Made by a program: the position numbers and the translations under genes
Assembly (NCBI GenBank): GCA_021786105.1
Contig: JAJYNW010000018.1
Span: forward strand, 5,241-69,240
DNA from: a bacterium
GTDB lineage: Bacteria; Patescibacteriota; Microgenomatia; Daviesbacterales; UBA10151
Direction: 5' to 3'
DNA length: 64,000 nucleotides
Shown here: piece by piece, positions 229-60,951 of the stretch
Layout of the letters: every line of letters begins with the position of its first letter
How positions within the stretch are numbered: the stretch's first letter is position 1
The notes under the pieces: model-generated
Told to the model about the DNA's origin: nothing
The model's input: the letters and a program-made list of their open reading frames with translations, nothing else
The model's database searches: none

Positions 229-257
229 GTTGCCACACCCCTTCGGGATCGCAATGA
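229..257. repeat. Truncated copy of the GTCATTGCGA...palindromic element family (compare the full 90-bp copy at 51422-51511)
   Basis: The reverse complement of 229-257 (gtcattgcgatcccgaaggggtgtggcaa) closely matches the 5' end of element 51422-51453 (gtcattgcgagagaccgaagggagcgtggcaa). Confidence 0.45.
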
Positions 258-267
258 CAAAAGGAAG

Positions 268-1191
268 TTAAAACCACCCTTTTTTCTCAGCAGATAAATT
301 TTTCAGTTCTTCGTAAAGCTGTTTTTCCTGTTTGGATGGGTTTTGCGGAACCTCCAGATTGACCCGGACATAGTGATCGCCGTGGCCGCTACTACCTAAA
401 CGGGGAACGCCTTTACCTTTTAATTTAACCAGCGATCCGGGCTGAGTACTCGGCGGCACCTTAACTTTAACCCGGCCCTGCACAGTATTAACTTCAAAGA
501 TATCTCCTAACACCAACTGCGGAATATTGACCGTAATCTCAGAAAAAATATCCGCCCCTTCCCGGATAAATTCCGGGTTTCTGGCCACATTAAAAACAAT
601 ATCCAAATCATCAAACCTCATTTTGGTACCGTTATCTACCCCGGCCGGCACTTTAATCTTCATTCTTTTTCTTTGGATCCTGCCATCCGGATTCCTGGAT
701 TCAATTTCCACTTCTTTAGTCACCCCATGAATAGCTTCATCAAAGCTCAAGCTTAACTGGTAAGTAGGACGTCTTCTAAATTGTTGGCCAAAAGGGGAGC
801 CGCCACCAAAAATTTGGGAAAATAATTCAAATGGGTCTTCAAACCCACCAAAATCCCCACCAAAAGGATTTCCGCCACTGGAAGACCAAGAATATGTTTG
901 CCAACCACCCCCGCCTCCAAATGGATTACCTCCTCCAAAAGGCCCACCCGCTCCGGCACCACCACGATCAAATGCCGCTTGGCCAAATTGATCATAAGCT
1001 CCCTTTTTCTGCGAGTCGGATAAAACTTGGTAAGCCTCAGAAATTTCTTTGAATTTTTCCGCTGCTCCGGCAGCTTTATCTATATCCGGGTGATGTTTCC
1101 GGGCCAATTTCCGGTAGGCAGACTTAATCTCCGCCTCCGAAGCGTTTTTAGTAATACCCAAAACTTCGTAGTAATCTCTTTTTGCAGCCAT
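268..1191 (-). CDS. dnaJ: DnaJ-class co-chaperone (J domain + Gly/Phe-rich region + C-terminal substrate-binding domains; no CxxCxGxG zinc finger, so type II/CbpA-like)
   Basis: N-terminus [31 protein letters not shown] (J domain with HPD), a long GGxxFGG G/F-rich linker, and a DnaJ_C-like C-terminus. It is the last gene of the hrcA-grpE-dnaK cluster. Confidence 0.85.
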
Positions 1192-6881: not shown

Positions 6882-7631
6882 ATGCCCAGTTCAATGAAGA
6901 CATTGCTTGTTGGTAAAAATTCCAAAGATATCGCCGGGTTGGTCAAACAGCTTGGTTTTCAAATCGTCACAGAGCATCCCGACGTCATTATTAGCTACGG
7001 CGGAGACGGGACTTTGCTTTATGCAGAAAGAATGCACCCCGGAGCCCCTAAACTACCAATCAGGGATAGCTCTGTTTGTAAAAAATGCCCCCAACACGGC
7101 GAAAAAGTTTTGCTGGAAAAATTACTGGCTGGCAAGTTACAACTCAAAGAATATAGAAAACTGGAAACCACTATTTTATATCAGACATTTTATGCTTTAA
7201 ATGACTCTGTCATCCGCAATCTGCACCCTATGCACACAATCCGTTTTAAGGTGACGAGTTCAACGAGTCATCCCGGACTTGATCCGGGATCCATAAATAA
7301 TAAATTACTAATTGGGGATGGTATCGTAGTAGCTACTCCTTTTGGTTCCACCGGTTATTTTCATAGCATTACCAGGAAGTCTTTTGAACAAGGTTTTGGG
7401 GTGGCTTTTAATAATACTACGGAAAAAGTTGACCCGCTTTTTTTAAAGGACGAAGATGAAGTAACTTTCAAATTAATCAGAGGCAATGCTACCTTATCTT
7501 TTGACAATAATCCTGACTTATTTAATATTGATGCAGGTTCGGAGATTACTTTTAAATTATCAAACCAGGTGGCCAAAATTTACGAGCTGGAATCCCTTAG
7601 GTGTCCTGATTGCGAGGTTACAAGAGGTTAA
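6882..7631 (+). CDS. nadK: NAD+ kinase
   Basis: GGDGT and DGxxxxTPxGSTGY motifs. A TATAAT hexamer at 6876-6881 directly abuts the first ATG, so the true start may be the ATG at 6894 (MKTLLVGK). Confidence 0.85.
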   Translation: MPSSMKTLLVGKNSKDIAGLVKQLGFQIVTEHPDVIISYGGDGTLLYAERMHPGAPKLPIRDSSVCKKCPQHGEKVLLEKLLAGKLQLKEYRKLETTILYQTFYALNDSVIRNLHPMHTIRFKVTSSTSHPGLDPGSINNKLLIGDGIVVATPFGSTGYFHSITRKSFEQGFGVAFNNTTEKVDPLFLKDEDEVTFKLIRGNATLSFDNNPDLFNIDAGSEITFKLSNQVAKIYELESLRCPDCEVTRG

Positions 7632-8602
7632 TTTACCGTTGATTCTAAAAAGTTCAATTCTTTTTTAGCAGTATCAAAAGCAACTTTAATCCCCACCGGC
7701 ATGGGGATATTAACCGTAAAATGACCAAAATCCAAATTAGCCATAATGGGGAATTTATAATCTTTCAAAATATCCAAAACCATCTCCTTCAAGGTTGGTT
7801 CCACAATCTCTTTTTCCCTGGCAGGTTTAATGTAAGTTATTTTTCCAATCAATAGCCCGGAAATTTGCTCAAAAATCCCTAAATATTTTAGTTGTGTTAA
7901 ATACCTGGCAATATCATGTAAAGATTCCCCTACTTCTTCAAAATATAAAATAGCTCCTTTAAAAACTTCCTTAGGCGGAAAATATTCTGTTCCTGCAAGC
8001 TGACACATCAAGTGTAAGTTCCCCCCCACCAAAATCCCGTCGGCCTTCCCTTTTTGCCACTCTTCCCAGTCTGTTAAAGGACTGACGATGCTTGCCGGCT
8101 TTGCCTTAGTTAAAAATTTCATAAATACTTCTGTATCGAATTCTCCCAAATGTTCCTCTCTCTCGCTCCAGGGATGGCCCAATCCAAAGGTCACATCGTC
8201 CATATGAAATCCGACCAATCCTGTTTTGGCAAACAAAGCCAAATGGAAATTGGTCACATCACTCATACCAATAAAAGGTTTTGGGTTTTTGGTTATCAGT
8301 TTATAATCTAAATACTCCAAAACAGTGATCGCCGAATAACCGCCGGTTTGCGCCATAATAGCTTTTATATTTTTATCAGCAAACATGGAGTTGATATCCT
8401 CTGCCACTTCTTTGGGCGTCCCAGCTGTCCACCACCTGGCTTTCCCGATAGTTTTCCCCTCTCTAATCTTAAAGCCCAAATCAGTCAGGATCTTTTTCCC
8501 TCTTTCATAATTTTCTTGAAATGAAGGCAGAACCGGCAAAGACGAGGCTACAATGCCAATAGTATCTCCAATATTCAATTTTTTCGGTTTGATTATTTTC
8601 AT
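7628..8602 (-). CDS. LD-carboxypeptidase (peptidase S66, LdcA/MccF-like)
   Basis: S66 N-terminus LNIGDTIGIVASS and a conserved C-terminal catalytic region. Confidence 0.8.
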   Translation of the reverse strand: MKIIKPKKLNIGDTIGIVASSLPVLPSFQENYERGKKILTDLGFKIREGKTIGKARWWTAGTPKEVAEDINSMFADKNIKAIMAQTGGYSAITVLEYLDYKLITKNPKPFIGMSDVTNFHLALFAKTGLVGFHMDDVTFGLGHPWSEREEHLGEFDTEVFMKFLTKAKPASIVSPLTDWEEWQKGKADGILVGGNLHLMCQLAGTEYFPPKEVFKGAILYFEEVGESLHDIARYLTQLKYLGIFEQISGLLIGKITYIKPAREKEIVEPTLKEMVLDILKDYKFPIMANLDFGHFTVNIPMPVGIKVAFDTAKKELNFLESTVN

Positions 8603-25151: not shown

Positions 25152-27053
25152 ATGCCCAACCTCTTAGATGATCTCAACCCCCAACAACAAGAAGCTGTTA
25201 AATCTACTGAGGGCCCATGTTTGATTTTGGCTGGAGCTGGTTCCGGCAAAACCCGTGTTTTAACCTACCGGGTGGTTTATTTAATTTCCGAGAAAAAAGT
25301 TCCGCCGGAAAATATTTTAGTTTTGACTTTTACCAATAAAGCCGCCGGTGAAATGATGGAAAGAATCAGAAAACTAATCTCTCATGATCCAAATACAATT
25401 GGTCACGAACCGATGATGGGAACATTTCATTCATTTTGCGCCAAAATCTTACGCCGGGAAGGCAAAGTTTTAGGCTTGCCGCCTGGTTTTGCCATTTACG
25501 ATGAGGGCGACGCTTTGGATGCAATCAAAGAAGCTATGGGTAATTTAAATATTCCCACCCAAAAAACTTCTCCCTACGCTGTCAGACATACTATTTCCGG
25601 GGCCAAAAACGAATTGATCTCCTCTTTGGAATATCCGCAATATGCCCGGGGTTATTTTCAGGAAATTGTGGCCAAAATCTATCTGGAATACCAAAATATT
25701 TTAGAAAGAAATCATGCTCTGGATTTTGATGATTTATTACTATATACGATTAAATTATTTAAAACAGACCCGGCAATCCTAACCAGGTACCAAATCCAAT
25801 TTCAATACATTCTAATTGATGAATACCAGGACACCAACCCGGCCCAGTATTTAATTTCCAAATTTTTGGCCAACCGCCACAAAAATATTTGTGTAGTGGG
25901 TGATGCCTCCCAATCAATTTATTCTTTCCGCGGGGCAGATTTTCGCAACATTGTTAATTTTCAGAAAGATTATCAGGGAGCCAAAGTTTTTAATTTAGAA
26001 CAAAATTACCGTTCCACTCAAAATATTTTGGATGCAGCCCATGCAGTCATCTCCAAAAACCGGTCCCACCCTATTTTAAAACTCTGGACCGATAAAGACG
26101 GCGGCGAAAAAATCGAGGTAGTGGAAGTCAGAAACGAAGTCGAAGAAGCTCTTTTTATAATCTCCAAAATAACTGGGCAGGAGCAAGTGAGCGGGATTGC
26201 CGACCGAAATACTGTTCTGTCCAATTTTGCCATTCTTTACCGCACCAATGCCCAATCCCGGTCTCTGGAAGAACAATTCTTAAAAGCCGGCATCCCCTAC
26301 AAATTGGTCGGCGGCGTCAGTTTTTACGAAAGAAAGGAAATCAAAGATGTCCTGGCCTATTTGCGCTTACTGCAAAATCCCAAAGATTCGGTTTCATTAA
26401 AAAGGGCTGAAAAAATCGGTAAAGGCAGACTGGCTAAAGTAATGGAGCTGGTTGCCGAAATTTCCCCACAACTGGAAAAATATGCCACTTTAGATTTACT
26501 GGACCGAATTTTGCAAAAAACCGGCTATTTGGCTTACATTGACGACAATACGGAAATCGGTAAAGCCCGGGTAGAAAATGTCAAAGAACTGCGTTCAGTG
26601 GCAGAAGAATTTCCTAATTTGGTGGAATTTTTGGAAAATGTGGCTTTGGTGGAAGCTTCCGACTCGCCGAAACACCGACACACTGATACACTGACCAATG
26701 ATGCCGTCACCTTAATGACACTGCATTCTGCTAAAGGCTTAGAATTTCCGACCGTATTTATGGTAGGAATGGAAGAAGGCTTGTTTCCTCATTCTAGATC
26801 CATGCTGGATATGCGGGAACTGGAAGAAGAAAGGCGATTGTGTTATGTCGGCATTACCCGAGCCAAGGAAAAATTATATTTAACATATGCTAGACAAAGG
26901 TTGTATTTTGGTCAAAGAAGTAATAACTTAGTATCCAGATTTTTAACTGATATACCGGAAAGCTTAATTACCAGTAATATTAGTTACAAAGATGAAAATA
27001 GTTTTAATGATAAACTTATGGATGCTGATGAGGAAGATTGGCTGAATGCCTAA
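25152..27053 (+). CDS. pcrA: ATP-dependent DNA helicase PcrA/UvrD
   Basis: All SF1 motifs are present: AGAGSGKT, TFTNKAA, DEYQDTN and VGITRAKEKLYLT. Confidence 0.9.
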   Translation: MPNLLDDLNPQQQEAVKSTEGPCLILAGAGSGKTRVLTYRVVYLISEKKVPPENILVLTFTNKAAGEMMERIRKLISHDPNTIGHEPMMGTFHSFCAKILRREGKVLGLPPGFAIYDEGDALDAIKEAMGNLNIPTQKTSPYAVRHTISGAKNELISSLEYPQYARGYFQEIVAKIYLEYQNILERNHALDFDDLLLYTIKLFKTDPAILTRYQIQFQYILIDEYQDTNPAQYLISKFLANRHKNICVVGDASQSIYSFRGADFRNIVNFQKDYQGAKVFNLEQNYRSTQNILDAAHAVISKNRSHPILKLWTDKDGGEKIEVVEVRNEVEEALFIISKITGQEQVSGIADRNTVLSNFAILYRTNAQSRSLEEQFLKAGIPYKLVGGVSFYERKEIKDVLAYLRLLQNPKDSVSLKRAEKIGKGRLAKVMELVAEISPQLEKYATLDLLDRILQKTGYLAYIDDNTEIGKARVENVKELRSVAEEFPNLVEFLENVALVEASDSPKHRHTDTLTNDAVTLMTLHSAKGLEFPTVFMVGMEEGLFPHSRSMLDMRELEEERRLCYVGITRAKEKLYLTYARQRLYFGQRSNNLVSRFLTDIPESLITSNISYKDENSFNDKLMDADEEDWLNA

Positions 27054-27056
27054 GTC

Positions 27057-27755
27057 ATGATGGAAAAATATTTAGGCATTCTTTTAATCATTGTCCTAAC
27101 CATATTTGCCAAAAGCGTATGGCGGGCACCGGCTGTTTTAGGAGAATCTACTCCTTCTTTGCAGGAAACCCTGCCGGTTAATCAACCCGTTCACACTGAA
27201 TCCTCTTTTACGGAAAAACTGCAGGAAGAAACTGAGGTTTTACCTAAAAAAACCGTTTATGAAGATGATCCGGAAACAGAGGCCGGTGAAGAAAAAGTGT
27301 TAGAGGAAGGCACAGATGGCAAGAAAACCAAGATTTACAAAATCACCTATTCCAAAGACGGCGAAGAATACGACCGGGATTTGGTATCAGTAGAAACCAC
27401 GCCAGCCAAAGATAAAAAAATCTCCCGCGGCACTAAAATTGTCTGGAGAACTTTGGATACACCCGATGGATCTATTCAATATTGGAAAAAAATGCGGGTT
27501 TACGCCACTCACTATGATTCCCATTGTCCGGGTTGTGATGAATGGACGGCCATCGGCATGAGGCAAGGCAAAGGCGTAATCGCCGTTGACCCAAAAGTTA
27601 TCAAGCTCCGTTCTAAAGTTTACATTCCCGACTATGGCATGGCAGTAGCCGGTGATACCGGCGGGGCCATTAAAGGCAATATTATTGATCTTGGCTTTGA
27701 AGATGCCAAAACAGCTGGTTGGAGTGCGCACTTTGTGGATATCTACCTTTTGTAA
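27057..27755 (+). CDS. G5 + 3D domain cell-wall protein (YabE/YocH-like)
   Basis: N-terminal TM, a G5-like region, and a 3D domain (DTGGAIKGNIIDL). Confidence 0.7.
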   Translation: MMEKYLGILLIIVLTIFAKSVWRAPAVLGESTPSLQETLPVNQPVHTESSFTEKLQEETEVLPKKTVYEDDPETEAGEEKVLEEGTDGKKTKIYKITYSKDGEEYDRDLVSVETTPAKDKKISRGTKIVWRTLDTPDGSIQYWKKMRVYATHYDSHCPGCDEWTAIGMRQGKGVIAVDPKVIKLRSKVYIPDYGMAVAGDTGGAIKGNIIDLGFEDAKTAGWSAHFVDIYLL

Positions 27756-27764
27756 AACAAAAAG

Positions 27765-27909
27765 CAAGCTCTGCTTAATTCCGAGTCTTCGAGGAATCAA
27801 GCTCTGCTTAATTCCGAGTCTTCGAGGAATCAAGCTCTGCTTAATTCCGAGTCTTCGAGGAATCAAGCTCTGCTTAATTCCGAGTCTTCGAGGAATCAAG
27901 CTCTGCTTA
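27765..27909. repeat. Tandem array: 33-bp unit CAAGCTCTGCTTAATTCCGAGTCTTCGAGGAAT x4 plus a 13-bp partial copy; each unit carries the ATTCC...GGAAT hairpin of the palindromic element family
   Basis: Perfect copies at 27765, 27798, 27831 and 27864, with a partial copy at 27897-27909. They fill the whole intergenic space between two convergent stop codons. There are no unique spacers, so this is not a CRISPR array. Confidence 0.95.
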
Positions 27910-27910
27910 T

Positions 27911-28558
27911 TTATTGTAAAAACTTAAAGCCGGATAAGATTTTCTCCCCGTTCTCCCCGATGATCCTCAAAAGATACATCCGGCCTTGATTTGATAAATA
28001 TAGGTATTTTGGCGAACCGGGCTGATATAACACAATTTTATATTTGGTAGTTTGACCGGCAACGACGACTTCTTCATCAGGAGTGACATGCCCTTTTGAA
28101 GCCCAGTCAAACACCCCCCAAAGAAAAGGGTAATACCAATATTTATCAAACCATTTATCAGCAATCAAATTATCCGGATTATCAAATACCCATACAGAAA
28201 AGGGATTGTTGTCATAATTCTGATCTTTTCCTAAAACCACCACAACTCCCGCAACTTTACCCGGCTCGTATTGCACATAGTTGGCAAAATTCCGTCTAAA
28301 ATTCCCACCACCTCTTTTGCTGTATTCCTCCTCCGAGTCTTCTTTCACCTGAAAATCTTTTGGATATTGGAATGCTAAGCCCAAGTTGTTGTCATTGTAA
28401 GTTTGGATTTGCAGAGTTTGCACCGGAGTTTTCCAAATTTTTGGTACGGCTAAAACTGAAGGTGAAGGTTTTATTAAACCTAGAAAGAGCAGACTAATCA
28501 AACCGACAATAATCAGTACAATAATCACAAGAAAAAGAGTGGCAGTACCCTTTTGCAT
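27911..28558 (-). CDS. Membrane-anchored secreted hypothetical protein (paralogue of the 4935-5545 product)
   Basis: Start placed at the ATG at 28558 (MQKGTATLFLVIIVLIIVG) and followed by a signal anchor. Shares the WKTP..FQYPKDF motif with the 4935 protein. Confidence 0.5.
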   Translation of the reverse strand: MQKGTATLFLVIIVLIIVGLISLLFLGLIKPSPSVLAVPKIWKTPVQTLQIQTYNDNNLGLAFQYPKDFQVKEDSEEEYSKRGGGNFRRNFANYVQYEPGKVAGVVVVLGKDQNYDNNPFSVWVFDNPDNLIADKWFDKYWYYPFLWGVFDWASKGHVTPDEEVVVAGQTTKYKIVLYQPGSPKYLYLSNQGRMYLLRIIGENGEKILSGFKFLQ

Positions 28559-28623
28559 GATAACTCCATCATAGCATAAATTCACTCTTGCCAAGATGCA
28601 ACCAGTTCTGTTATTATCGGTCA

Positions 28624-29280
28624 ATGATGAAGAAACCTACTTCAAAACCTAAATCAGACCGACCCTTTAGCAAAATTAATAGCTTACTTGAAAAGTTTTC
28701 ATCTGCTAGAAATCTGAAGTCATCAAAAACATTTTATCTTATTCTGATCATTGCCGGTCTTTTACTTTTGGCAATCTATAAAAAGAATTGGTTTGTAGCC
28801 GCCACAGTTAACGGCTCGCCTATCACTAACCTGGAATTGCAATCCCGCCTAAATCAGCAATTCCGGACTCAAACCTTAAATCAACTTATTGATGAAAAAA
28901 TCATTTTAGGGGAGGCGGCTAAGAAAAACGTCGTAGTAACCGAGACGGATATTGATAAAAAAATCTCGGAAATAGAAGCGCAGGTGGGAGGAGCACAAGC
29001 TTTGGATTCTCTACTGGCTCAGCAGGGACAGGACAGAAATAGTATCAAGCAACTCATCAAATTACGGTTGATTGTTGAGAAGCTCTATACCAACGAGGCC
29101 ACGGTTTCCGCAGAAGAAGTTAACAGTTTTATAGAACAGAATAAAAACCAACTGCGGGCTACAGATTCTGCCGGACAAGAAAAAGAAGCCTACGATGCCA
29201 TTAAAAGCCAAAAATTATCCCAAATCTCTGCACAAAAATTCCAGGAACTCAAACAAAAAGCCAAAACCCAACTATTTTAG
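28624..29280 (+). CDS. SurA N-terminal-domain-like periplasmic chaperone (no PPIase domain)
   Basis: Start at the ATG at 28624 (the ORF-track start is TTG). Single TM followed by SurA_N-like helices. Confidence 0.5.
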   Translation: MMKKPTSKPKSDRPFSKINSLLEKFSSARNLKSSKTFYLILIIAGLLLLAIYKKNWFVAATVNGSPITNLELQSRLNQQFRTQTLNQLIDEKIILGEAAKKNVVVTETDIDKKISEIEAQVGGAQALDSLLAQQGQDRNSIKQLIKLRLIVEKLYTNEATVSAEEVNSFIEQNKNQLRATDSAGQEKEAYDAIKSQKLSQISAQKFQELKQKAKTQLF

Positions 29281-29335: not shown

Positions 29336-30409
29336 ATGAATCTTAAAACAATCAAAGATAACCAGAAAAAAGAATATAACAAATTAGCCACTCATGTTAT
29401 CCAATCTTGGGAATGGGGAGAATTTAGAAAAACCTTAGGAATCCCCCTCCTCCGATATGGTTTATACCAAAACGGCAAATTATCAAAAGTCTTCCAATTA
29501 ACCTTACACAAAATTCCCTTTACTAATCAATACGTTGGCTATTTGCCCAAAGGACCTTTCCCGGATGCTGAACTGGCAGAGGCTTTAACAGAAATCGGCA
29601 AAAAAAATAACTGCGCTTTCGTCAAAGTTGAACCGAATGTAGTTACTTCTGTCATTCCTGCGAATGCAGGAATCCAAAAAACGGACTCTAGTTCGGAATC
29701 GGATCCCGACATTCGTCGGGATGACAAAACTATAGATTCTAGTTTTATTAAATCCCCCAAGCCCCTGTTTACCAAATATAATTTCGTCCTTGATTTAACA
29801 AAATCAGAAACAGATCTTTTAAAAAATATGCATTCCAAAACCAGGTACAACATTAAGGTGGCCAAAAAACACGGAGTGGAAGTGAAAGAGCTATCAGACA
29901 ATGGAGCCTTTGAAATTTATTTAAAACTTTATTTTGAAACCACCCGCCGACAAGGTTACCACGGACACAACGAATATTACCACCGGCAAGCCTGGAAAAC
30001 TTTAAAGGAAGCTGGTTTAGCCAGATTACTGATTGCTTTTTATCAGGGCGAGCCATTGACGGCCTGGATGCTGCTAAATTTCCAAGATACTCTTTATTAT
30101 CCTTACGGCGGCTCCTTAAAAGCTCACCCGGAAGTCATGGCCAATAACTTGGTGGCCTGGGAAGCTATTAATTTGGGCAAAAAATTAAAGCTAAAAAATT
30201 TTGACATGTGGGGAGCGCTGGGGCCTGATGCTGACCCAAAAGATCCCTGGTATGGATTCCATAAGTTTAAACAAGGATACGGAGGAAAATTAACTGAATA
30301 TGTCGGTACTTATGATTTAGTTTTTAATTGGCCCATTTATTGGCTGTTTACAGTTATCGATAAATTAACCCCGCTTAAAATCTTTTTATTGAAATTGCTT
30401 AGAAAATAA
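29336..30409 (+). CDS. FemAB-family peptidoglycan interpeptide-bridge aminoacyltransferase carrying an in-frame palindromic-element insertion
   Basis: FemAB hallmarks (KYNFVLDLTKSE..TRYNIKVAKK, GYHGHNEYYH) plus a low-complexity insert VIPANAGIQKTDSSSESDPDIRRDD that coincides with two hairpins. Confidence 0.8.
   Translation: MNLKTIKDNQKKEYNKLATHVIQSWEWGEFRKTLGIPLLRYGLYQNGKLSKVFQLTLHKIPFTNQYVGYLPKGPFPDAELAEALTEIGKKNNCAFVKVEPNVVTSVIPANAGIQKTDSSSESDPDIRRDDKTIDSSFIKSPKPLFTKYNFVLDLTKSETDLLKNMHSKTRYNIKVAKKHGVEVKELSDNGAFEIYLKLYFETTRRQGYHGHNEYYHRQAWKTLKEAGLARLLIAFYQGEPLTAWMLLNFQDTLYYPYGGSLKAHPEVMANNLVAWEAINLGKKLKLKNFDMWGALGPDADPKDPWYGFHKFKQGYGGKLTEYVGTYDLVFNWPIYWLFTVIDKLTPLKIFLLKLLRK
29651..29726. 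repeat. Palindromic (MITE/RPE-like) element inside the FemAB-family CDS
   Basis: Termini GTCAT...ATGAC. Contains two perfect 8-bp-stem hairpins: ATTCCTGC-GAAT-GCAGGAAT (29654-29673) and ATCCCGAC-ATTC-GTCGGGAT (29703-29722). Confidence 0.6.
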
Positions 30410-50809: not shown

Positions 50810-51133
50810 TTATCCTTCCAATATTGCCATCAAGTCATCAAACTTGACCAGCTTTAATTCCTTTCCATCCACTTTAATTTCATCCCCGCCCCATTTCTTG
50901 TAAACTACCTTATCGCCAACATTAACCGGACACTTCATTACTTTGCCGTTTTCAAAAACCATCTCATCACCGCAAGCTACCACTTTTCCCTGGGCCGGTT
51001 TTTCCTGAGCTGATTCGGGAAGAATTATACCGGAAGAAGTTTTGGTTTCAGCGGAGGAGGGCTCAACTAACACATAACCCATGAGGGGTTTTATTGAAAC
51101 TTTAGTACTATTATTTAATTTAGTTCTAGCCAT
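50810..51133 (-). CDS. groS: Co-chaperonin GroES
   Basis: KPLMGYVLVEP...GIILPESAQEKPAQGKVVACGD. Start moved to MARTKL (51133) by alignment logic. Confidence 0.9.
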   Translation of the reverse strand: MARTKLNNSTKVSIKPLMGYVLVEPSSAETKTSSGIILPESAQEKPAQGKVVACGDEMVFENGKVMKCPVNVGDKVVYKKWGGDEIKVDGKELKLVKFDDLMAILEG

Positions 51134-51146
51134 AGTGAATGAATTT

Positions 51147-51212
51147 GTCATCCTGAACGAAGTGAAGGATCTCTAGATTAATCTTGAGATTCCTCGTTTC
51201 ACTCGGAATGAC
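51147..51212. repeat. Composite palindromic element in the groES 5'-UTR: GTCATCCTGAACGAAGTGAAGGATC (51147-51171) and its inverted partner GATTCCTCGTTTCACTCGGAATGAC (51188-51212)
   Basis: Two 25-bp hairpin units in inverted orientation separated by 16 bp. Same family as the copies at 29651, 51422, 52639 and 27765. Confidence 0.6.
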
Positions 51213-51232
51213 AGAGGAGCAGTGCAAAAGAA

Positions 51233-51262
51233 TATATACCAGAGATTAGCACTTCTTGTCAA
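51233..51262 (-). promoter_or_regulatory. Putative groESL promoter (-35 CCTTGACAA context, 18-nt spacer, -10 TATATA)
   Basis: The minus strand reads ccTTGACAagaagtgctaatctctggTATATA. CIRCE half-site-like AGTGCTAA and TTtGCACT motifs are present, but not in the canonical arrangement. Confidence 0.4.
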
Positions 51263-52167
51263 GGACTGATTATTTTTTTCAAGTTTTGTTGGTATTGGGA
51301 TAAAATTTCCAGCCGGCAATCCTCCGGATGGAAATACAACGCCCCCTCTTCTATCCGCTCCAGACCTTGCGGCTTTTGCATGTACCATAATTGAAATTTC
51401 CTAGCTACATTTTCCATGCTCGTCATTGCGAGAGACCGAAGGGAGCGTGGCAATCTGGATTTGGGACTAATCCGACCCAAATTGCTTCGTCGTTTCACTC
51501 CTCGCAATGACGTATCGATAGAACCTACCCAGTTTGGTAGGTATTTAAACACCCATTGGTTATCCTCAAGGTACTTCTCATAAATCCCGCCTCTTTGCCA
51601 CAACACCTTCATTTGTAAAATCTCATGAGCAGTAAAAATATCTTTATTGGCCTGCTCTAACTTATCCTCCTCCAGTAAAATATTTACACAAAGCTTTCCG
51701 GCTGCCCTCCTACCCTTTTCCCCCACCTTCCGTTTTTGCCTGGTCAAAGATAATAATCCTAAAGCCAACAGCCGGGAAACCCACAAGCGGTTTTTAGAAG
51801 TAATAATAAACAAATCAATGTCATCGGTTTTCCCGGCATTATTTACCGCCAGTCCTCCGGAAATACCCACCAATTTTATCCAAGGAATAATTTTTAGGAT
51901 TTGAGAAAGAGCTCTGACTTTCCTTAAATATTTTGCAGACTGCTCTTCTCGCCGGCGTCTTTGACTAATCAACCCATTTTTTTTCTTCAGAAAATAATAA
52001 TCACTCTGCATCTTACACTTTTTACTTTGCACCAATTTCCCAAGCGTTTTTTCTATCTGCCTTAGTGTCACTTTTTTATCAATTAACCATTTATGGATCT
52101 CATAAATAGTCAGGGGATAATCAAACAAATCAGCATAAATTAGAGTTTTAAGAATCGCTTTTTCCAT
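51259..52167 (-). CDS. wHTH + minimal nucleotidyltransferase (Pol-beta-like) domain protein with a 30-codon in-frame palindromic-element insertion near the C-terminus
   Basis: NTase motif VGISGGLAVNNAGKTDDIDLFII. Residues encoded by 51422-51511 (..RSLRSLAMTSME..) are element-derived. Confidence 0.5.
   Translation of the reverse strand: MEKAILKTLIYADLFDYPLTIYEIHKWLIDKKVTLRQIEKTLGKLVQSKKCKMQSDYYFLKKKNGLISQRRRREEQSAKYLRKVRALSQILKIIPWIKLVGISGGLAVNNAGKTDDIDLFIITSKNRLWVSRLLALGLLSLTRQKRKVGEKGRRAAGKLCVNILLEEDKLEQANKDIFTAHEILQMKVLWQRGGIYEKYLEDNQWVFKYLPNWVGSIDTSLRGVKRRSNLGRISPKSRLPRSLRSLAMTSMENVARKFQLWYMQKPQGLERIEEGALYFHPEDCRLEILSQYQQNLKKIISP
51422..51511. repeat. 90-bp palindromic element with perfect 11-bp terminal inverted repeats GTCATTGCGAG / CTCGCAATGAC and an internal hairpin
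   Basis: Seen directly in the sequence. The length is exactly 30 codons and it lies inside the CDS 51259-52167 with no stop codon. Confidence 0.7.
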
Positions 52168-52206: not shown

Positions 52207-53157
52207 TTGTCTATGCTGAAACTTGAAGATAACTTTCCCTTAAAAAATATCACCACCTTACAAATTGGTGGGCCGGCCAAAAAATTTGTTGCAGTAAAAA
52301 CCCAGGAAGATTTGATTGAAGCCATCGCATACGCCAAAAACAACCAAATACCCTACTTAATAATTGGCGGCAGCAGCAATTTATTAATCGCTGATGAAGG
52401 GGTAAATGGTTTGGTAATTAAAAACGAAATCTCCGGCATCGAATCAATATCACACCTCGGAGGTGTAACATTGAAAGTTAAATCAGGTACTATTTTGCAA
52501 GATGTAGTTGACTATGCCATTAACCACAACTTGGCTGGTTTAGAAAAGTTGACCAAAATTCCTGGCACGGTGGGCGGAGCAGTTTATGGCAATGCCGGCG
52601 CTTATGGTCAAACCATTTCCGACCACATAACCCGCGTTGTCATTCTGAGCGAAGCGAAGAATCTCAAGACTTTAACTAAAAGCAAATGTAAGTTTGGTTA
52701 CCGAAACAGTATCTTCAAAAAGAATAAATACCCAATTATAGAAGCCGCATTCCAGCTGGAAACTGGTAATCCGGAAAATCTGCAAATGGCCGCCAAGGCA
52801 GTGGCGTGGAAAAGATTTGTCAAATATCCGCCTGGTCTAAAATGCCCGGGCTCTTTTTTCAAGAATTTAGTGGCGGCGGATATTCCCGAAGAAATCTTAA
52901 AAAATATTCCGCCGGAAAAAATTGTTTACGGCAAATTGCCTGCCGGAGCACTGCTGGAAGAAGTGGGTGCCAAAGGGCAGTCCTTAAACGGCATCGCCAT
53001 TTCGGACCGCCATGCCAACTTGTTTATCAACCAAGGCACCGGCACCGCCCAGGCTTTTTATAATCTAGCCAAAACTTATGCCCAAAAAGTGAAAGAAAAA
53101 TTTGGTATTACCTTAGAACCCGAAGTCCAATTAATCAACCTGCCGCCATTTTCTTAA
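52207..53157 (+). CDS. murB: UDP-N-acetylenolpyruvoylglucosamine reductase MurB
   Basis: FAD-binding N-terminus (TLQIGGPAKKF...IIGGSSNLL) and a MurB C-terminal domain. Confidence 0.9.
   Translation: MSMLKLEDNFPLKNITTLQIGGPAKKFVAVKTQEDLIEAIAYAKNNQIPYLIIGGSSNLLIADEGVNGLVIKNEISGIESISHLGGVTLKVKSGTILQDVVDYAINHNLAGLEKLTKIPGTVGGAVYGNAGAYGQTISDHITRVVILSEAKNLKTLTKSKCKFGYRNSIFKKNKYPIIEAAFQLETGNPENLQMAAKAVAWKRFVKYPPGLKCPGSFFKNLVAADIPEEILKNIPPEKIVYGKLPAGALLEEVGAKGQSLNGIAISDRHANLFINQGTGTAQAFYNLAKTYAQKVKEKFGITLEPEVQLINLPPFS
52639..52663. repeat. 25-bp hairpin element GTCATTCTGAGCGAAGCGAAGAATC inside murB (encodes VILSEAKN)
   Basis: Same family consensus GTCATYCYGARCGAAGYGARGRATC. Confidence 0.55.
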
Positions 53158-58218: not shown

Positions 58219-59471
58219 AATCAGATGTAAAAGATCTAAAACTGGCGCCGAAAGGCAAACTGCGGATTGAATGGGCTGGTTCCCAGATGAAAGTGTTGGA
58301 ACTAATCAAAAAACGCTTTCAAAAAGAACAACCGCTCAAAGGGGTTAAACTGGGCGCTTGCCTGCACGTTACCGCTGAAACTGCCAACTTAATGATTGCT
58401 TTAAAGACAGGCGGAGCCGAGCTGTCTTTATGTGCCTCCAACCCTTTATCTACTCAAGATGATGTGGCCGCCTCGCTCATCGAAGATTACAACATCCCCA
58501 CTTATGCTATTAAAGGCGAGGATAAAGACACCTATTATAAACACCTAAACGAAGTCTTAGATTTTAAACCGCAAATTACCATGGATGACGGGGCTGATTT
58601 AGTCACCCTTTTACACACCGAAAGGAAAGATCAACTCAAAGATGTCATTGGTTCCTCTGAGGAAACCACCACCGGCGTCATTAGACTGCATGCCATGTTC
58701 AAAGACGGTACCTTACAAATCCCAGTGATTGCCGTTAATGATTCCAACACCAAACATATGTTTGATAACCGCTATGGTACCGGCCAATCCACCATTGACG
58801 GGATTATTCGGGCCACCAATGTGTTGCTCGCCGGCAAAAAATTTGTGGTTTGCGGTTATGGCTGGTGCGGCCGGGGGCTGGCTAGTCGAGCCAGAGGCAT
58901 GGGGGCACAGGTGGTTGTAACTGAGGTTGATCCGCTAAAAGCTTTGGAAGCTGTTATGGATGGGTTTGAGGTCATGCCTATTGCGCAGGCGGTAAAAGTT
59001 GCCGATATTATCTGCACTGCCACCGGTAATAAAGCGGTGTTATCAGTCGCACACTTTAAACAAATTAAAGATGGAGCCATTGTTTCTAACACCGGTCACT
59101 TTAACGTTGAATTTGATTATGATGGTTTGGTGAAAATTGCCAAAAGCCGACGGCATTTACGGGATAATTTGGAAGAAATTATTCTCAAAGACGGCAAAAA
59201 GATTTTTGTGTTGGGTGAAGGCCGCCTGATTAATTTAGCCTCCGCTGAAGGCCACCCGCCTGATGTGATGGATATGAGCTTTGCCAACCAGGCCTTGGCC
59301 GCCGAGTTTTTGGTCAAAAATAAAGGTAAATTAAAAGTTGATGTGTATACGGTGCCACAAGAACTGGATGATATGATTGCCCAATTAAAGCTGGAATCAT
59401 TAGGCGTCAAAATCGATACTTTGACTGCTGAACAGAAAAAATATTTATCTTCCTGGCACGAAGGCACTTAA
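58215..59471 (+). CDS. ahcY: Adenosylhomocysteinase (SAH hydrolase)
   Basis: Full-length AhcY with NAD-binding GYGWCGRG and a conserved C-terminus. Confidence 0.95.
59450..59471. repeat. 22-bp direct repeat copy 1 (TTCCTGGCACGAAGGCACTTAA), the 3' end of ahcY
   Basis: Exact copy at 60063-60084. Confidence 0.9.
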
Positions 59472-59474
59472 GTT

Positions 59475-59496
59475 GTAATTAATTACAGTATTTTTT
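59475..59496. terminator. Possible bidirectional terminator: 12-bp palindrome GTAATTAATTAC followed by a T-run
   Basis: AT-only stem, which is weak. It sits between convergent ahcY and GNAT. Confidence 0.25.
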
Positions 59497-59947
59497 CCAT
59501 ATGAATAGAAGGGAGCTTGCCTCCCTCAGAATTAACATGAAATCCCTCTTTGATCTTTCCGAATCCATGTTTTTCATAAAATTCCATTGCTGTCAAGGAA
59601 GAGTCAACCTTTAACTTCCTAACGCCCATTTTATATGCTTTTTGCTCTAAGTATGCAAGAATTTTTGCTCCTATTCCTTTCCTTAAATAATTTGCACTGA
59701 CATATATTGCGGTAATTTCATCATCTTTTAAAGAGCCTACCCCCACAATTTGGTTATTTTCAATAGCAATACAGGTAAAACGATTTTTGTCTTGCATTCT
59801 CTCTTTTACTTTTTCTTCTGTATCCGTTTTTTTCCATACCTTTATCTGTTCTGGAGAATAATCCTTTGCATTTACTTTCCTGATTGTATCCTGCGTTAGC
59901 AAACTAATTTCCCTTACTTCACTAATTTTTGCTTTTCTGATTAACAT
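59483..59947 (-). CDS. GNAT-family N-acetyltransferase
   Basis: Acetyl-CoA binding motif RKGIGAKIL. The gene is AT-rich relative to its neighbours. Confidence 0.8.
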   Translation of the reverse strand: MLIRKAKISEVREISLLTQDTIRKVNAKDYSPEQIKVWKKTDTEEKVKERMQDKNRFTCIAIENNQIVGVGSLKDDEITAIYVSANYLRKGIGAKILAYLEQKAYKMGVRKLKVDSSLTAMEFYEKHGFGKIKEGFHVNSEGGKLPSIHMEKIL

Positions 59948-60027: not shown

Positions 60028-60951
60028 TTAGCTCAAGAGCAAAAACGTTAGGTTTAACCGCATTCCTGGCACGAAGGCACTTAAATTTTTAATATATTCC
60101 GGATTTGTACCGCAACATCCGCCTATTATCTGAACCCCGCTCTTAATCCACTTTTGCGCTTCTTTTAAATAACTATCTGCTGCTTTTACTCCACCTCCCG
60201 TCCAACCCTGCACATCATCAACCCCCCCATCACCCTGGGCATAAACTCCAATAGGTAAATCAGTTAATTTTCTCAGTTTTTTCACCACTTTAGTAATAAT
60301 TCTTGGTGGCATGCAATTTAATGATATGAATAACGGTCCGTATGTTGCTATGACAGACACAGCTTTTTGCAGATCCTCTCCGCCTAACAATTGCCCCTTT
60401 GAATTACAACAAAAACTTACCGCTACCGGTATCTTTACTTTCTGTGCGGCTTGACAGACTGAAGCCGCCTCGTCAATACTAATCATAGTTTCAGCCAAAA
60501 CAAAATCTACCTCTCCTTTTTTAAGATTTCTAACATTTTCTAGATGTTCTTTTTTTAGTTCTTTAACAGGGGGCACTAAATCGGGTCTATAACAATCCTC
60601 CAAAGGAGCAATTGAGCCTCCCACCCAAGCTTGTTTACCTGATTCCCTAACTGCTTCTCTGGCTAATTTACAAGCCAATAGCGTGGCCGCTTTAGCTTTG
60701 TTTTTAAAATTAGCTTTTTTAAATGTTCTTTCTGTTGTTCTAAAGGTATTCGTCACAATAATCTGCGCCCCCGAATCAACATAATCTCTGTGGATTTGTT
60801 TAACTACCTCAGGATGTGTTAATAAAGCTTTAGCAGACCATAACGGCAGAGTGGTTCTAATGCCGCGGGCGGTAATTTCCGAACCAGTGCCTCCATTCAT
60901 TATGATAATTTGACCTGTTTTTAACAGGTTTTCCAACTGCTTAGCCGTCAT
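60028..60951 (-). CDS. Homocysteine S-methyltransferase (Hcy-binding domain, MmuM/YitJ-N-like)
   Basis: Zn ligands in GGCCGTNPEYI plus an upstream Cys. The C-terminal ~7 aa are encoded by the antisense of the 22-bp repeat. Confidence 0.85.
   Translation of the reverse strand: MTAKQLENLLKTGQIIIMNGGTGSEITARGIRTTLPLWSAKALLTHPEVVKQIHRDYVDSGAQIIVTNTFRTTERTFKKANFKNKAKAATLLACKLAREAVRESGKQAWVGGSIAPLEDCYRPDLVPPVKELKKEHLENVRNLKKGEVDFVLAETMISIDEAASVCQAAQKVKIPVAVSFCCNSKGQLLGGEDLQKAVSVIATYGPLFISLNCMPPRIITKVVKKLRKLTDLPIGVYAQGDGGVDDVQGWTGGGVKAADSYLKEAQKWIKSGVQIIGGCCGTNPEYIKNLSAFVPGMRLNLTFLLLS
60063..60084. repeat. 22-bp direct repeat copy 2
   Basis: Identical to 59450-59471. Confidence 0.9.

Follow-up and report, generated by a model that had tools for sequence, protein, structure and literature searches.

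We analysed 64,000 nt of contig JAJYNW010000018.1 (assembly GCA_021786105.1, positions 5,241 to 69,240 of the forward strand), a stretch of Candidatus Daviesbacteria DNA that is referred to below as the window, for a family of short palindromic repeats with the ends GTCAT and ATGAC. The 64-kb window carries nine tagged modules, six of them joined in three head-to-head dimers and three standing as singlets, and besides these one tag-less 33-bp tandem array (Table 1). They lie within or next to genes for DnaJ, NAD kinase, a FemAB-family protein, GroES, a DUF5457-like protein and MurB. The repeats represent a new instance, in a new host lineage, the candidate phyla radiation (CPR), of an already described superfamily, the CGTC-tagged repetitive extragenic palindromes (REPs), and some copies lie in frame inside essential genes.

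Modules, dimers and the tandem array of the window

Each module consists of an unpaired (T/C)GTC tag, a hairpin with A-T and T-A as its outermost two pairs, and a 3-nt tail. Six of the nine tags in the window read TGTC, two read CGTC and one reads AGTC. In the commonest subtype, here called type A, an outer stem of 5 bp is followed by a tandem G.A/A.G mismatch, which is invariant, then by two additional pairs and a triloop of the form GNA; the window copies show nine stem positions and the loop GAA (CGAAG if the loop is taken as 5 nt), carry the tail CTC, and differ among themselves by compensatory pairs. Perfect 8-bp hairpins are formed by three modules (7266, 29650 and 29700(-)), with the loops GAAT or CTTGA and the tails CCA (7266 and 29650) or CCG (29700). 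A longer, bulged-stem subtype, 'GTCATTGCGAG...GCAAT', is represented by the module at 229-258(-) and by both arms of the dimer at 51421-51512, and the published definition of an 8-9-bp stem fits it loosely.

Table 1. Repeat elements of the window and the open reading frames (ORFs) that contain them. Spaces within a module sequence separate tag, stem arm, loop, stem arm and tail.
Feature	Position	Strand	Sequence or structure	Site and translation
Single module, long-stem 'GTCATTGCGA..GGCAA' subtype	229..258	-	Complete sequence GTCATTGCGATCCCGAAGGGGTGTGGCAA; resembles left arm of 51421-51512	
Single perfect-stem module	7266..7293	+	AGTC ATCCCGGA CTTGA TCCGGGAT CCA	Inside NAD kinase ORF 6882-7631; translates to SHPGLDPGS
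Tandem array, 33 bp x 4.4 perfect copies	27765..27909	+	Unit is the stem-loop ATTCCGAG-TCTT-CGAGGAAT, a type-A stem without the GTC tag	
Head-to-head dimer, two CGTC-1-like hairpins	29650..29726	both		Inside FemAB-family ORF 29336-30409; translated ..VIPANAGIQKTDSSSESDPDIRRDD..
Left arm of FemAB dimer	29650	+	TGTC ATTCCTGC GAAT GCAGGAAT CCA	
Right arm of FemAB dimer	29700	-	TGTC ATCCCGAC GAAT GTCGGGAT CCG	
Head-to-head dimer	51146..51213	both	Two type-A modules and a palindromic spacer	Between DUF5457-like gene and groES, minus strand
Head-to-head dimer, 92 bp, 'GTCATTGCGAG' subtype	51421..51512	both	12-bp perfect termini, central hairpin	DUF5457-like ORF 51259-52167(-); translated ..SLRGVKRRSNLGRISPKSRLPRSLRSLAMT..
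Single type-A module	52638..52665	+	TGTC ATTCTGAGC GAA GCGAAGAAT CTC	Inside murB 52207-53157; translates to VILSEAKNL

A first-pass annotation, made from the letters alone, had proposed that at least six loci share one 25-nt hairpin consensus, GTCATYCYGARCGAAGYGARGRATC. All seven loci that it listed are present within 1-2 nt, but the consensus fits only three modules with at most 3 mismatches (51147-51171(+), 51188-51212(-) and 52639-52663(+)), against none in shuffled sequence. The remaining loci have the architecture in common with type A, not the consensus, and form sibling subfamilies; the letters common to all subfamilies are few, with GTCAT marking one end and ATC the opposite one. The tandem array, and the pairing of 51188-51212 as the inverted partner of 51147-51171, were read correctly. 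The dimer given as 90 bp at 51422-51511 with 11-bp terminal repeats is real, although its extent and its termini are slightly longer, whereas the element at 229-257, described as truncated, is a complete single module, and the module in the NAD kinase gene had been overlooked.

A generic scan for GTC followed by an AT-initiated hairpin returned 7 sites in the window, compared to 0.55 ± 0.77 in 100 dinucleotide shuffles. A covariance model, as the first-pass annotation had suggested, was built and trained only on modules of other organisms, and it recovered the window copies. The three type-A copies were found at E = 3e-8 to 9e-7, and the module at 7266 and every other listed locus were among the top 14 matches, with the exception of the module at 229-258. 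In the tandem array the model matched four units, over model positions 5-26 only. The repeats are real; the shuffles and the externally trained model both speak against unrelated chance palindromes, the outcome which the first-pass annotation had named as fatal to its proposal.

We then asked how the palindrome behaves among copies. At stem position 3 of 442 modules from a broad sample, collected with a scan that let all four pyrimidine/purine combinations through, we observed C-G in 205, T-A in 225 and non-Watson-Crick combinations in 12. Among 110 distinct modules of other organisms, 97.3% of the cells were paired and double changes occurred at five of the seven pairs, a result equalled in none of 500 shuffles. 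As judged from these pair counts, the palindrome is maintained.

Most modules are paired in dimers. All three dimers of the window are head-to-head, with the tags outward, and none is tail-to-tail; in the broad sample the two arrangements numbered 65 and 15, respectively. The dimers are imperfect palindromes of 54-115 bp with the termini TGTCAT...ATGACA, the ends reading T-GTC..GAC-A, and can fold as one long hairpin or as two separate ones. Single-strand folding of the dimers was significantly more stable than in shuffles, with z scores of -2.3 to -4.7 as DNA and -3.9 to -6.8 as RNA. A target-site duplication of 3 nt or longer was found at none of the 65 head-to-head dimers, 2-nt matches occurred at two or three of them against about four by chance, and inspection of the three window dimers revealed none. 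The elements are non-coding and non-autonomous.

The copies occupy the kinds of places that had been claimed for them, that is, a 5' leader (upstream of groES), the gap between convergent genes, and coding sequence in which the frame is kept. The module at 229-258 adjoins the 3' end of dnaJ (268-1191, minus strand), and the tandem array is located between the convergent genes 27057-27755(+) and 27911-28624(-); in one relative (L005) a tagged singlet at 7745 lies 3' of the orthologous G5/3D gene. Four elements are found within ORFs that stay open, those of NAD kinase, FemAB, the DUF5457-like protein and MurB. Between them, these in-gene copies are read in all three frames, with GTC-ATT giving V-I (FemAB and MurB), A-GTC-AT as S-H (NAD kinase) and C-GTC-ATT as T-S-L (the DUF5457-like gene).

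In the groES ORF (50810-51151, minus strand), the first ATG is supplied by the ATGAC end of the neighbouring dimer, ahead of a Cpn10 domain that begins only at residue 20. The N-terminus as annotated is therefore likely to be a repeat artefact, with translation probably starting from the ATG at 51133 instead. The insert in the 302-aa DUF5457-like protein was considered as the cause of its Pfam DUF5457 match, and this was rejected; the match spans residues 5-76. No tRNA was found in the window. A 49-nt direct repeat of a different kind, starting with TTCCTGGCACGAAGGCACTTAA, is present at 59450-59498 and 60063-60111 with 78% identity, at or near the 3' ends of neighbouring genes.

Membership in the CGTC-tagged REP superfamily and distribution

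CGTC-tagged REPs were described by Di Nocera, De Gregorio & Rocco (BMC Genomics 2013, PMC3733652), a paper which distinguishes the families CGTC-1 to CGTC-4 in five phyla. In its definition, an unpaired tag, CGTC and often TGTC or CCTC, is followed by a stem of 8-9 bp with the first pairs A-T and T-A, a loop of 4-5 nt and an unpaired 3-nt tail with the consensus CCA. Head-to-head dimers predominate, tail-to-tail dimers are few, copies occur in genes and tend to sit in DNA repair genes, no transposase is associated with them, and the repeats are never adjacent to tyrosine transposase genes. The paper equates CGTC-1 and CGTC-4 of Rickettsia conorii with the Rickettsia palindromic elements (RPEs) RPE-6 and RPE-4, respectively, equates Neisseria dRS3 with CGTC-1, and reports a CGTC-1 dimer in MurB of R. 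conorii (RC0332). The peptides encoded by the repeats (its Additional file 3) include VIPAKAGI (R. conorii), RHPGLDPGS (E. litoralis), SFPRKRES and DSRFRGND. It favours RNA roles for many REPs, reports R. prowazekii and R. typhi to be free of the modules, and does not discuss replication strands.

The elements studied here agree with this description in their CGTC or TGTC tag, in the A-T and T-A opening of the stem and, for the perfect-stem copies, in the 8-9-bp stem, the 4-5-nt loop and the CCA tail. They are likewise mostly head-to-head dimers and have in-frame copies in genes, and no neighbouring transposase was found in the window or the sampled loci. The peptide types VIPAKAGI, SFPRKRES and RHPGLDPGS recur, and the window peptides VIPANAGI (FemAB) and SHPGLDPGS (NAD kinase) are near-identical to the published ones. 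Sequence identity extends to named members, since the left arm of a head-to-head dimer on a Rickettsia endosymbiont plasmid reads TGTC ATTCCTGC GTAG GCAGGAAT CCA, with the same stem as the window module at 29650. A type-A head-to-head dimer is present in a Helicobacter cinaedi prophage. Both came from BLAST searches of the dimers against phage and plasmid collections, which gave short weak matches and serve as examples, not as statistics. Because the definition, the encoded peptides and the Rickettsia plasmid stem match, the first-pass label of Rickettsia-type palindromic elements is right at the family level.

Several features set the present elements apart from those described. Their host phylum, Patescibacteria/CPR, lies outside the five that were reported, and the share of copies within genes is very high. 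The dominant subtypes here have the tandem G.A mismatch and GNA triloop, or the bulged GTCATTGCGAG..GCAAT stem, with the tails CTC, CTT and ATA, and the peptides VILSEAK.., VIASEAKQS.. and SLRG..LAMT are missing from the list of intragenic elements in PMC3733652. As the first-pass annotation had supposed, such repeats are rarely documented in small-genome uncultivated lineages; literature searches gave nothing for CPR or Patescibacteria, and searches for the strings GTCATTGCGAG and CTCGCAATGAC returned unrelated primer matches only.

The resemblance to RPE-6 and RPE-4 (Ogata et al., 2000, 2002) lies in short palindromes placed in frame in genes that still function, with orthologues that have no insert for FemAB, the DUF5457-like protein and NAD kinase; in MurB the module is an in-frame replacement that leaves the length unchanged. 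Unlike the obligate intracellular alphaproteobacterium in which RPEs were found, the host here is a free-standing CPR lineage, and several subtypes occur side by side. The comparison rests on RPE-4 and RPE-6 as equated in PMC3733652, and RPE-1 (~100-150 bp) falls outside it.

About 205 kb of Daviesbacteria DNA contained ~48 clear modules, or ~1 per 4 kb, many of them in genes. The dominant tail differs between genomes, being ATA in four relatives (L001, L003, L005 and L372) and CCA in another (L007), with CTC in the type-A copies of the window. As the dominant subtype and tail vary from genome to genome, and ATA is rare overall (13 of the 442 modules of the broad sample), amplification appears to have taken place within lineages.

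Beyond Daviesbacteria, a scan with the type-A pattern GTCATYCTGAGN{3,16}CGAAGRAT found at least 120 loci in at least 20 phylum-level groups of the GTDB genomes and at least 120 viral contigs in IMG/VR. Among the GTDB matches listed are several CPR lineages, Chloroflexota, Acidobacteriota, Bacteroidota, Bacillota, Planctomycetota and Thermotogota. Type-A modules of the broad sample begin their tag with T in 77% and with C in 18%, and have tails of the form CTN or CCN. With a CGTC-1 pattern in metagenomes, 146 of 156 modules among the matches listed had the tail CCA, and the first tag base was C in 75 and T in 67. Type-A modules were also seen in clusters, with 4 direct copies ~190 bp apart on a Gracilibacteria contig (L172 5747-6660), 7 copies on a Lachnospiraceae contig (L204 5558-7723) and 6 on a viral contig (L057 3860-8687).

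Occupied and empty sites in orthologous genes

Comparison of the in-gene copies with orthologous genes, which the first-pass annotation had proposed as a way to define target sites and target-site duplications, showed loops that are empty or hold other subtypes. The window FemAB protein has a 100% identical counterpart in a Patescibacteria metagenome-assembled genome, and its closest relatives are annotated as Candidatus Daviesbacteria. In 42 orthologues, the linker after the motif 'EP(N/D)' is either short (proteins of ~331-336 aa) or carries an insert of 20-45 aa. These inserts are translated dimers of varied subtype (VIASEAKQS..IATSPSAPRND, VIPSNEGIQ..DPRLRGDD, VILSETKDI..IAQND and SLANASTSETSSEILR), and the DNA of eight syntenic loci confirmed that they are head-to-head dimers. 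In these loci the left junction is variable, lying 0, 6, 11 or 20 nt past the EP(N/D) codons, and the right junction hardly varies. In place of an insert, the 'empty' alleles have short in-frame tandem repeats, such as caggttacaggcaa x2 (L002, 10001-11029) and ctaccaa x4 (L003, 10001-11008), and the linker seems to be tolerant of any simple sequence. Since neighbours in a neighbour-joining tree of FemAB differ in subtype or are empty, we infer that this site has turned over repeatedly.

In the DUF5457-like protein, the linker of orthologues is empty, or is filled with the window subtype, with other subtypes or with unrelated insert families. The latter include a diverged insert of ~50 aa common to five proteins (P0252: ARRGAKKRSHGRDLLTCENFVEDRYLQSLRKSAQNLQHFL) and AT-rich inserts that translate to KNNELRIKHKKHNS and NSHNTKYIIHNT. 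From their sequences, these unrelated inserts look like further repeat families. The window NAD kinase has a loop that is ~9 residues longer (SHPGLDPGS) than in typical orthologues, and one relative (P0361) has SFPRKRES at this place.

The MurB module takes the place of a native beta-hairpin segment, with the length unchanged in comparison with solved MurB structures and orthologues, and VVILSEAKNLKT stands at the module position in about ten Daviesbacteria. At the DNA level, the module of the window is the same as that of one relative (L372) over ~34 nt while the flanks differ. In a second relative (L371) two compensatory pairs differ (ATT..AAT to ATC..GAT and AGC..GCG to AAC..GTG), with three amino acids altered, and this module is identical to the copy upstream of groES in the window. 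This pattern indicates either that the hairpin is selected in situ or that copies convert one another.

A copy in one gene can be identical to a copy in another gene of another genome, while orthologous copies differ by compensatory pairs. The finding that the same loops of FemAB, MurB, NAD kinase and the DUF5457-like protein are empty or hold different subtypes indicates turnover. Copies survive between genes and also, simply translated, in surface loops and linkers of proteins that tolerate them.

Other genes of relatives also carry the repeats. CGTC dimers or modules are present in UvrD/PcrA and SbcD (L001 7113-7172; L002 6039-6122; L007 5153-5220; L005 5960-6016, 6290-6355 and 14098); the window's own UvrD (25152-27053) has no module. 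In two Daviesbacteria relatives, inteins (Pfam Intein_splicing) were detected in a thioredoxin-like gene and in UvrD (L002 3061-4656; L006 4848-7808), and none in the orthologues of the window.

Strand bias, propagation and alternative explanations

We determined the orientation of single modules relative to strand composition. The tag strand was the C-rich strand in 110 of 130 type-A singlets and, in an independent collection, in 28 of 40 CGTC-1 singlets. The bias was kept in 30 of 43 when the coding-strand term was removed (p = 0.014). Singlets inside ORFs were sense in 34 cases and antisense in 33 with crude gene calls, and 11 and 23, respectively, for type A with GC-frame-filtered calls; such an antisense lean is expected if genes are co-oriented with the leading strand. 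In the window, the GC skew of the plus strand is negative throughout (overall -0.135; -0.042 in plus genes and -0.194 in minus genes) and can be split into two terms, one replication-like (-0.118) and one coding (+0.076). It follows that the window belongs to a single replichore, on which the minus strand leads and carries most of the genes. The plus strand carries two of the three singlets.

Only the tag strand forms the G.A/A.G tandem and the GNA triloop. DNA hairpins are known to be unusually stable when they contain sheared G.A pairs and GNA loops, as in d(GCGAAGC), and the two strands of an element should consequently differ in hairpin stability. We regard the strand bias as a lead, not as proof, pointing either to a replication-linked single-strand mechanism or to selective loss of one orientation. 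The C-rich (tag) strand would presumably be the lagging strand, and the orientation lost would put the stable hairpin on the lagging-strand template.

We propose that the elements proliferate and turn over at the DNA level within lineages. Their spread would probably depend on an activity acting in trans that leaves no target-site duplication, recognises a folded single strand and is probably linked to replication, and copy-to-copy gene conversion probably adds to the turnover. The mobilising enzyme is unlikely to be a REP-associated tyrosine transposase (RAYT) encoded beside the repeats; the agent could be a widespread enzyme that has escaped recognition, or else factors of host replication and repair that act on the hairpin stabilised by G.A pairs and the GNA loop. 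In its full form, that is, RAYT-free, replication-coupled and single-strand-specific propagation along with copy-to-copy conversion, and with the orientation bias of singlets as its footprint, this mechanism is put forward tentatively, as a possibility of which we are doubtful.

A number of observations weigh against this account. A mobilising enzyme was not found by a RAYT/TIRYT profile or by clustering of neighbouring genes in 249 loci with 2.19 Mb of DNA close to modules, plus the window. The profile search revealed no RAYT/TIRYT-like ORF in the window or in eight syntenic Daviesbacteria loci, and one match among all ORFs of the 249 loci, on a viral contig (L098 1170-1817). This gene is flanked by inverted copies of GGCGCAGGCTTCCAGCCTGTGGGG, with a CGTC dimer 4 kb away, and it looks like a separate REP-transposase unit because the flanking repeats are unrelated to CGTC modules. 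Clustering of ORFs within 2 kb of modules gave no recurrent gene family save phage structural genes, which recur because the sample includes viral contigs, and a search for genes bracketed by outward-facing modules, with a loose and noisy detector, gave no recurrent candidate. The 'empty' FemAB sites hold other sequence, so the boundaries of the element there are drawn from the palindrome only, and simple insertion leaves unexplained why the length of MurB is the same as in solved structures. No pair of filled and empty alleles with identical flanks was seen among the orthologues, and for this reason exact insertion junctions and mobility in real time are not demonstrated. Gene orientation is a confounder of the strand bias, low-GC loci alone gave 14 of 20 (p = 0.12), and the genes of foreign loci were called crudely. 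Finally, the GA-mismatch and GTCATTGCGAG subtypes would be set apart from the published families by the peptide list of PMC3733652 only.

We considered whether the repeats could instead function as hairpins in RNA, for example to stabilise or terminate transcripts or to regulate translation, with selection acting on the mRNA and the DNA repeat being secondary. Some copies do sit behind the 3' end of a gene or within a 5' leader (229-258 after dnaJ and 51146-51213 before groES), the dimers fold well as RNA, PMC3733652 leans to RNA roles for many REPs, and nine of nine single modules in Daviesbacteria, scored by eye on called genes, were sense to the host or preceding gene. This last result was not reproduced in the sense and antisense counts of the broad sample given above, and a sense-strand bias as a general property was dropped. 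Further, the tag strand shows no excess of G.T over A.C (8 versus 19), many copies lie deep in coding sequence in three frames, and most are symmetric dimers. Rfam gave no match at gathering thresholds for the whole window and none at E <= 1 for 51100-51560. Selection on RNA is thus an unlikely explanation.

A closer parallel in design is provided by the GTAG-type REPs and REPINs of E. coli and Pseudomonas, which are moved by RAYTs of the IS200/IS605 family. They too have an unpaired 4-nt tag and an imperfect hairpin, occur mostly as inverted pairs and make no target-site duplications; in both systems the inverted doublet is the likely unit, singlets being probably decayed doublets, and a single-strand DNA mechanism is suspected, which the orientation bias relative to strand composition recalls. 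However, the tag here is (T/C)GTC and not GTAG, the window and the syntenic loci have no RAYT, and the sole match in 2.19 Mb is accompanied by other repeats. CGTC repeats are, according to PMC3733652, never beside tyrosine transposase genes. The REPIN-RAYT system has also been described as lineage-restricted and vertically inherited, whereas the CGTC subfamilies are near-unchanged across phyla and occur in viral contigs. Movement by a RAYT of this type therefore seems quite improbable.

Neisseria dRS3 is a prophage integration site, and modules are present in many viral contigs and one prophage, so the repeats could be recombination targets, namely attachment or insertion sites for IS110/IS1111-type transposases or phage integrases. 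The identification of dRS3 with CGTC-1 (PMC3733652) would support such a role. This explains neither hundreds of copies nor the amplification of subtypes by lineage. No recurrent integrase or DEDD transposase was found beside modules in the sample, and no module of the window is interrupted, which makes this explanation very unlikely.

The first-pass annotation had also likened the repeats to miniature inverted-repeat transposable elements (MITEs), that is, deletion derivatives of insertion sequences (ISs) with a DDE-type transposase, moved by way of the terminal inverted repeats TGTCAT..ATGACA. Dimers of 54-115 bp with 11-12-bp terminal inverted repeats starting with TG resemble Correia/NEMIS, RUP, Nezha and other bacterial MITEs in being small, non-coding and multi-copy, with occasional insertion in frame. 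Yet no direct repeat of 3 nt or longer was found at the 65 dimers, 2-nt matches being at the level of chance, one-ended single modules are common, and the units are much shorter. No transposase gene flanked by modules was detected in the 2.19 Mb near modules, and PMC3733652 reports no associated one either. With no target-site duplications at the 65 dimers and no cognate IS found in that 2.19 Mb, this half of the label is not supported, and an origin as classical MITEs is highly improbable. Chance palindromes that merely begin with GTCAT would account for the few letters shared across subfamilies, but can practically be dismissed given the shuffles, the externally trained model and the many near-identical copies of each subfamily in relatives and in other phyla.

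Taken together, we consider it likely that the repeats are CGTC-tagged REP superfamily elements in Candidatus Daviesbacteria that are proliferating and turning over at the DNA level. How RPE and CGTC palindromes spread has been a standing question since they were found inside Rickettsia genes in 2000. Nearly the same elements saturate a ~1-Mb CPR genome, with copies in MurB, FemAB and NAD kinase and, in relatives, in UvrD and SbcD. With the GA-mismatch subtype present in viral contigs and in 20 or more phylum-level groups, the host range extends far past the five reported phyla, and a spread across phyla weighs against any lineage-specific transposase. What is new here is the CPR host with its heavy in-gene load, the turnover in four proteins, the spread of the GA-mismatch subtype in bacteria and viruses, the absence of target-site duplications, and a strand-composition bias, albeit a confounded one.

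For the annotation of CPR genomes, the modules give rise to lineage-specific peptide inserts, false start codons as in groES, and spurious small ORFs. The strand bias, if it holds under replichore mapping, would be the first mechanistic clue for the superfamily. If propagation is indeed coupled to replication, gene-poor and element-saturated CPR genomes would be the best place to find the machinery responsible by phyletic co-occurrence.

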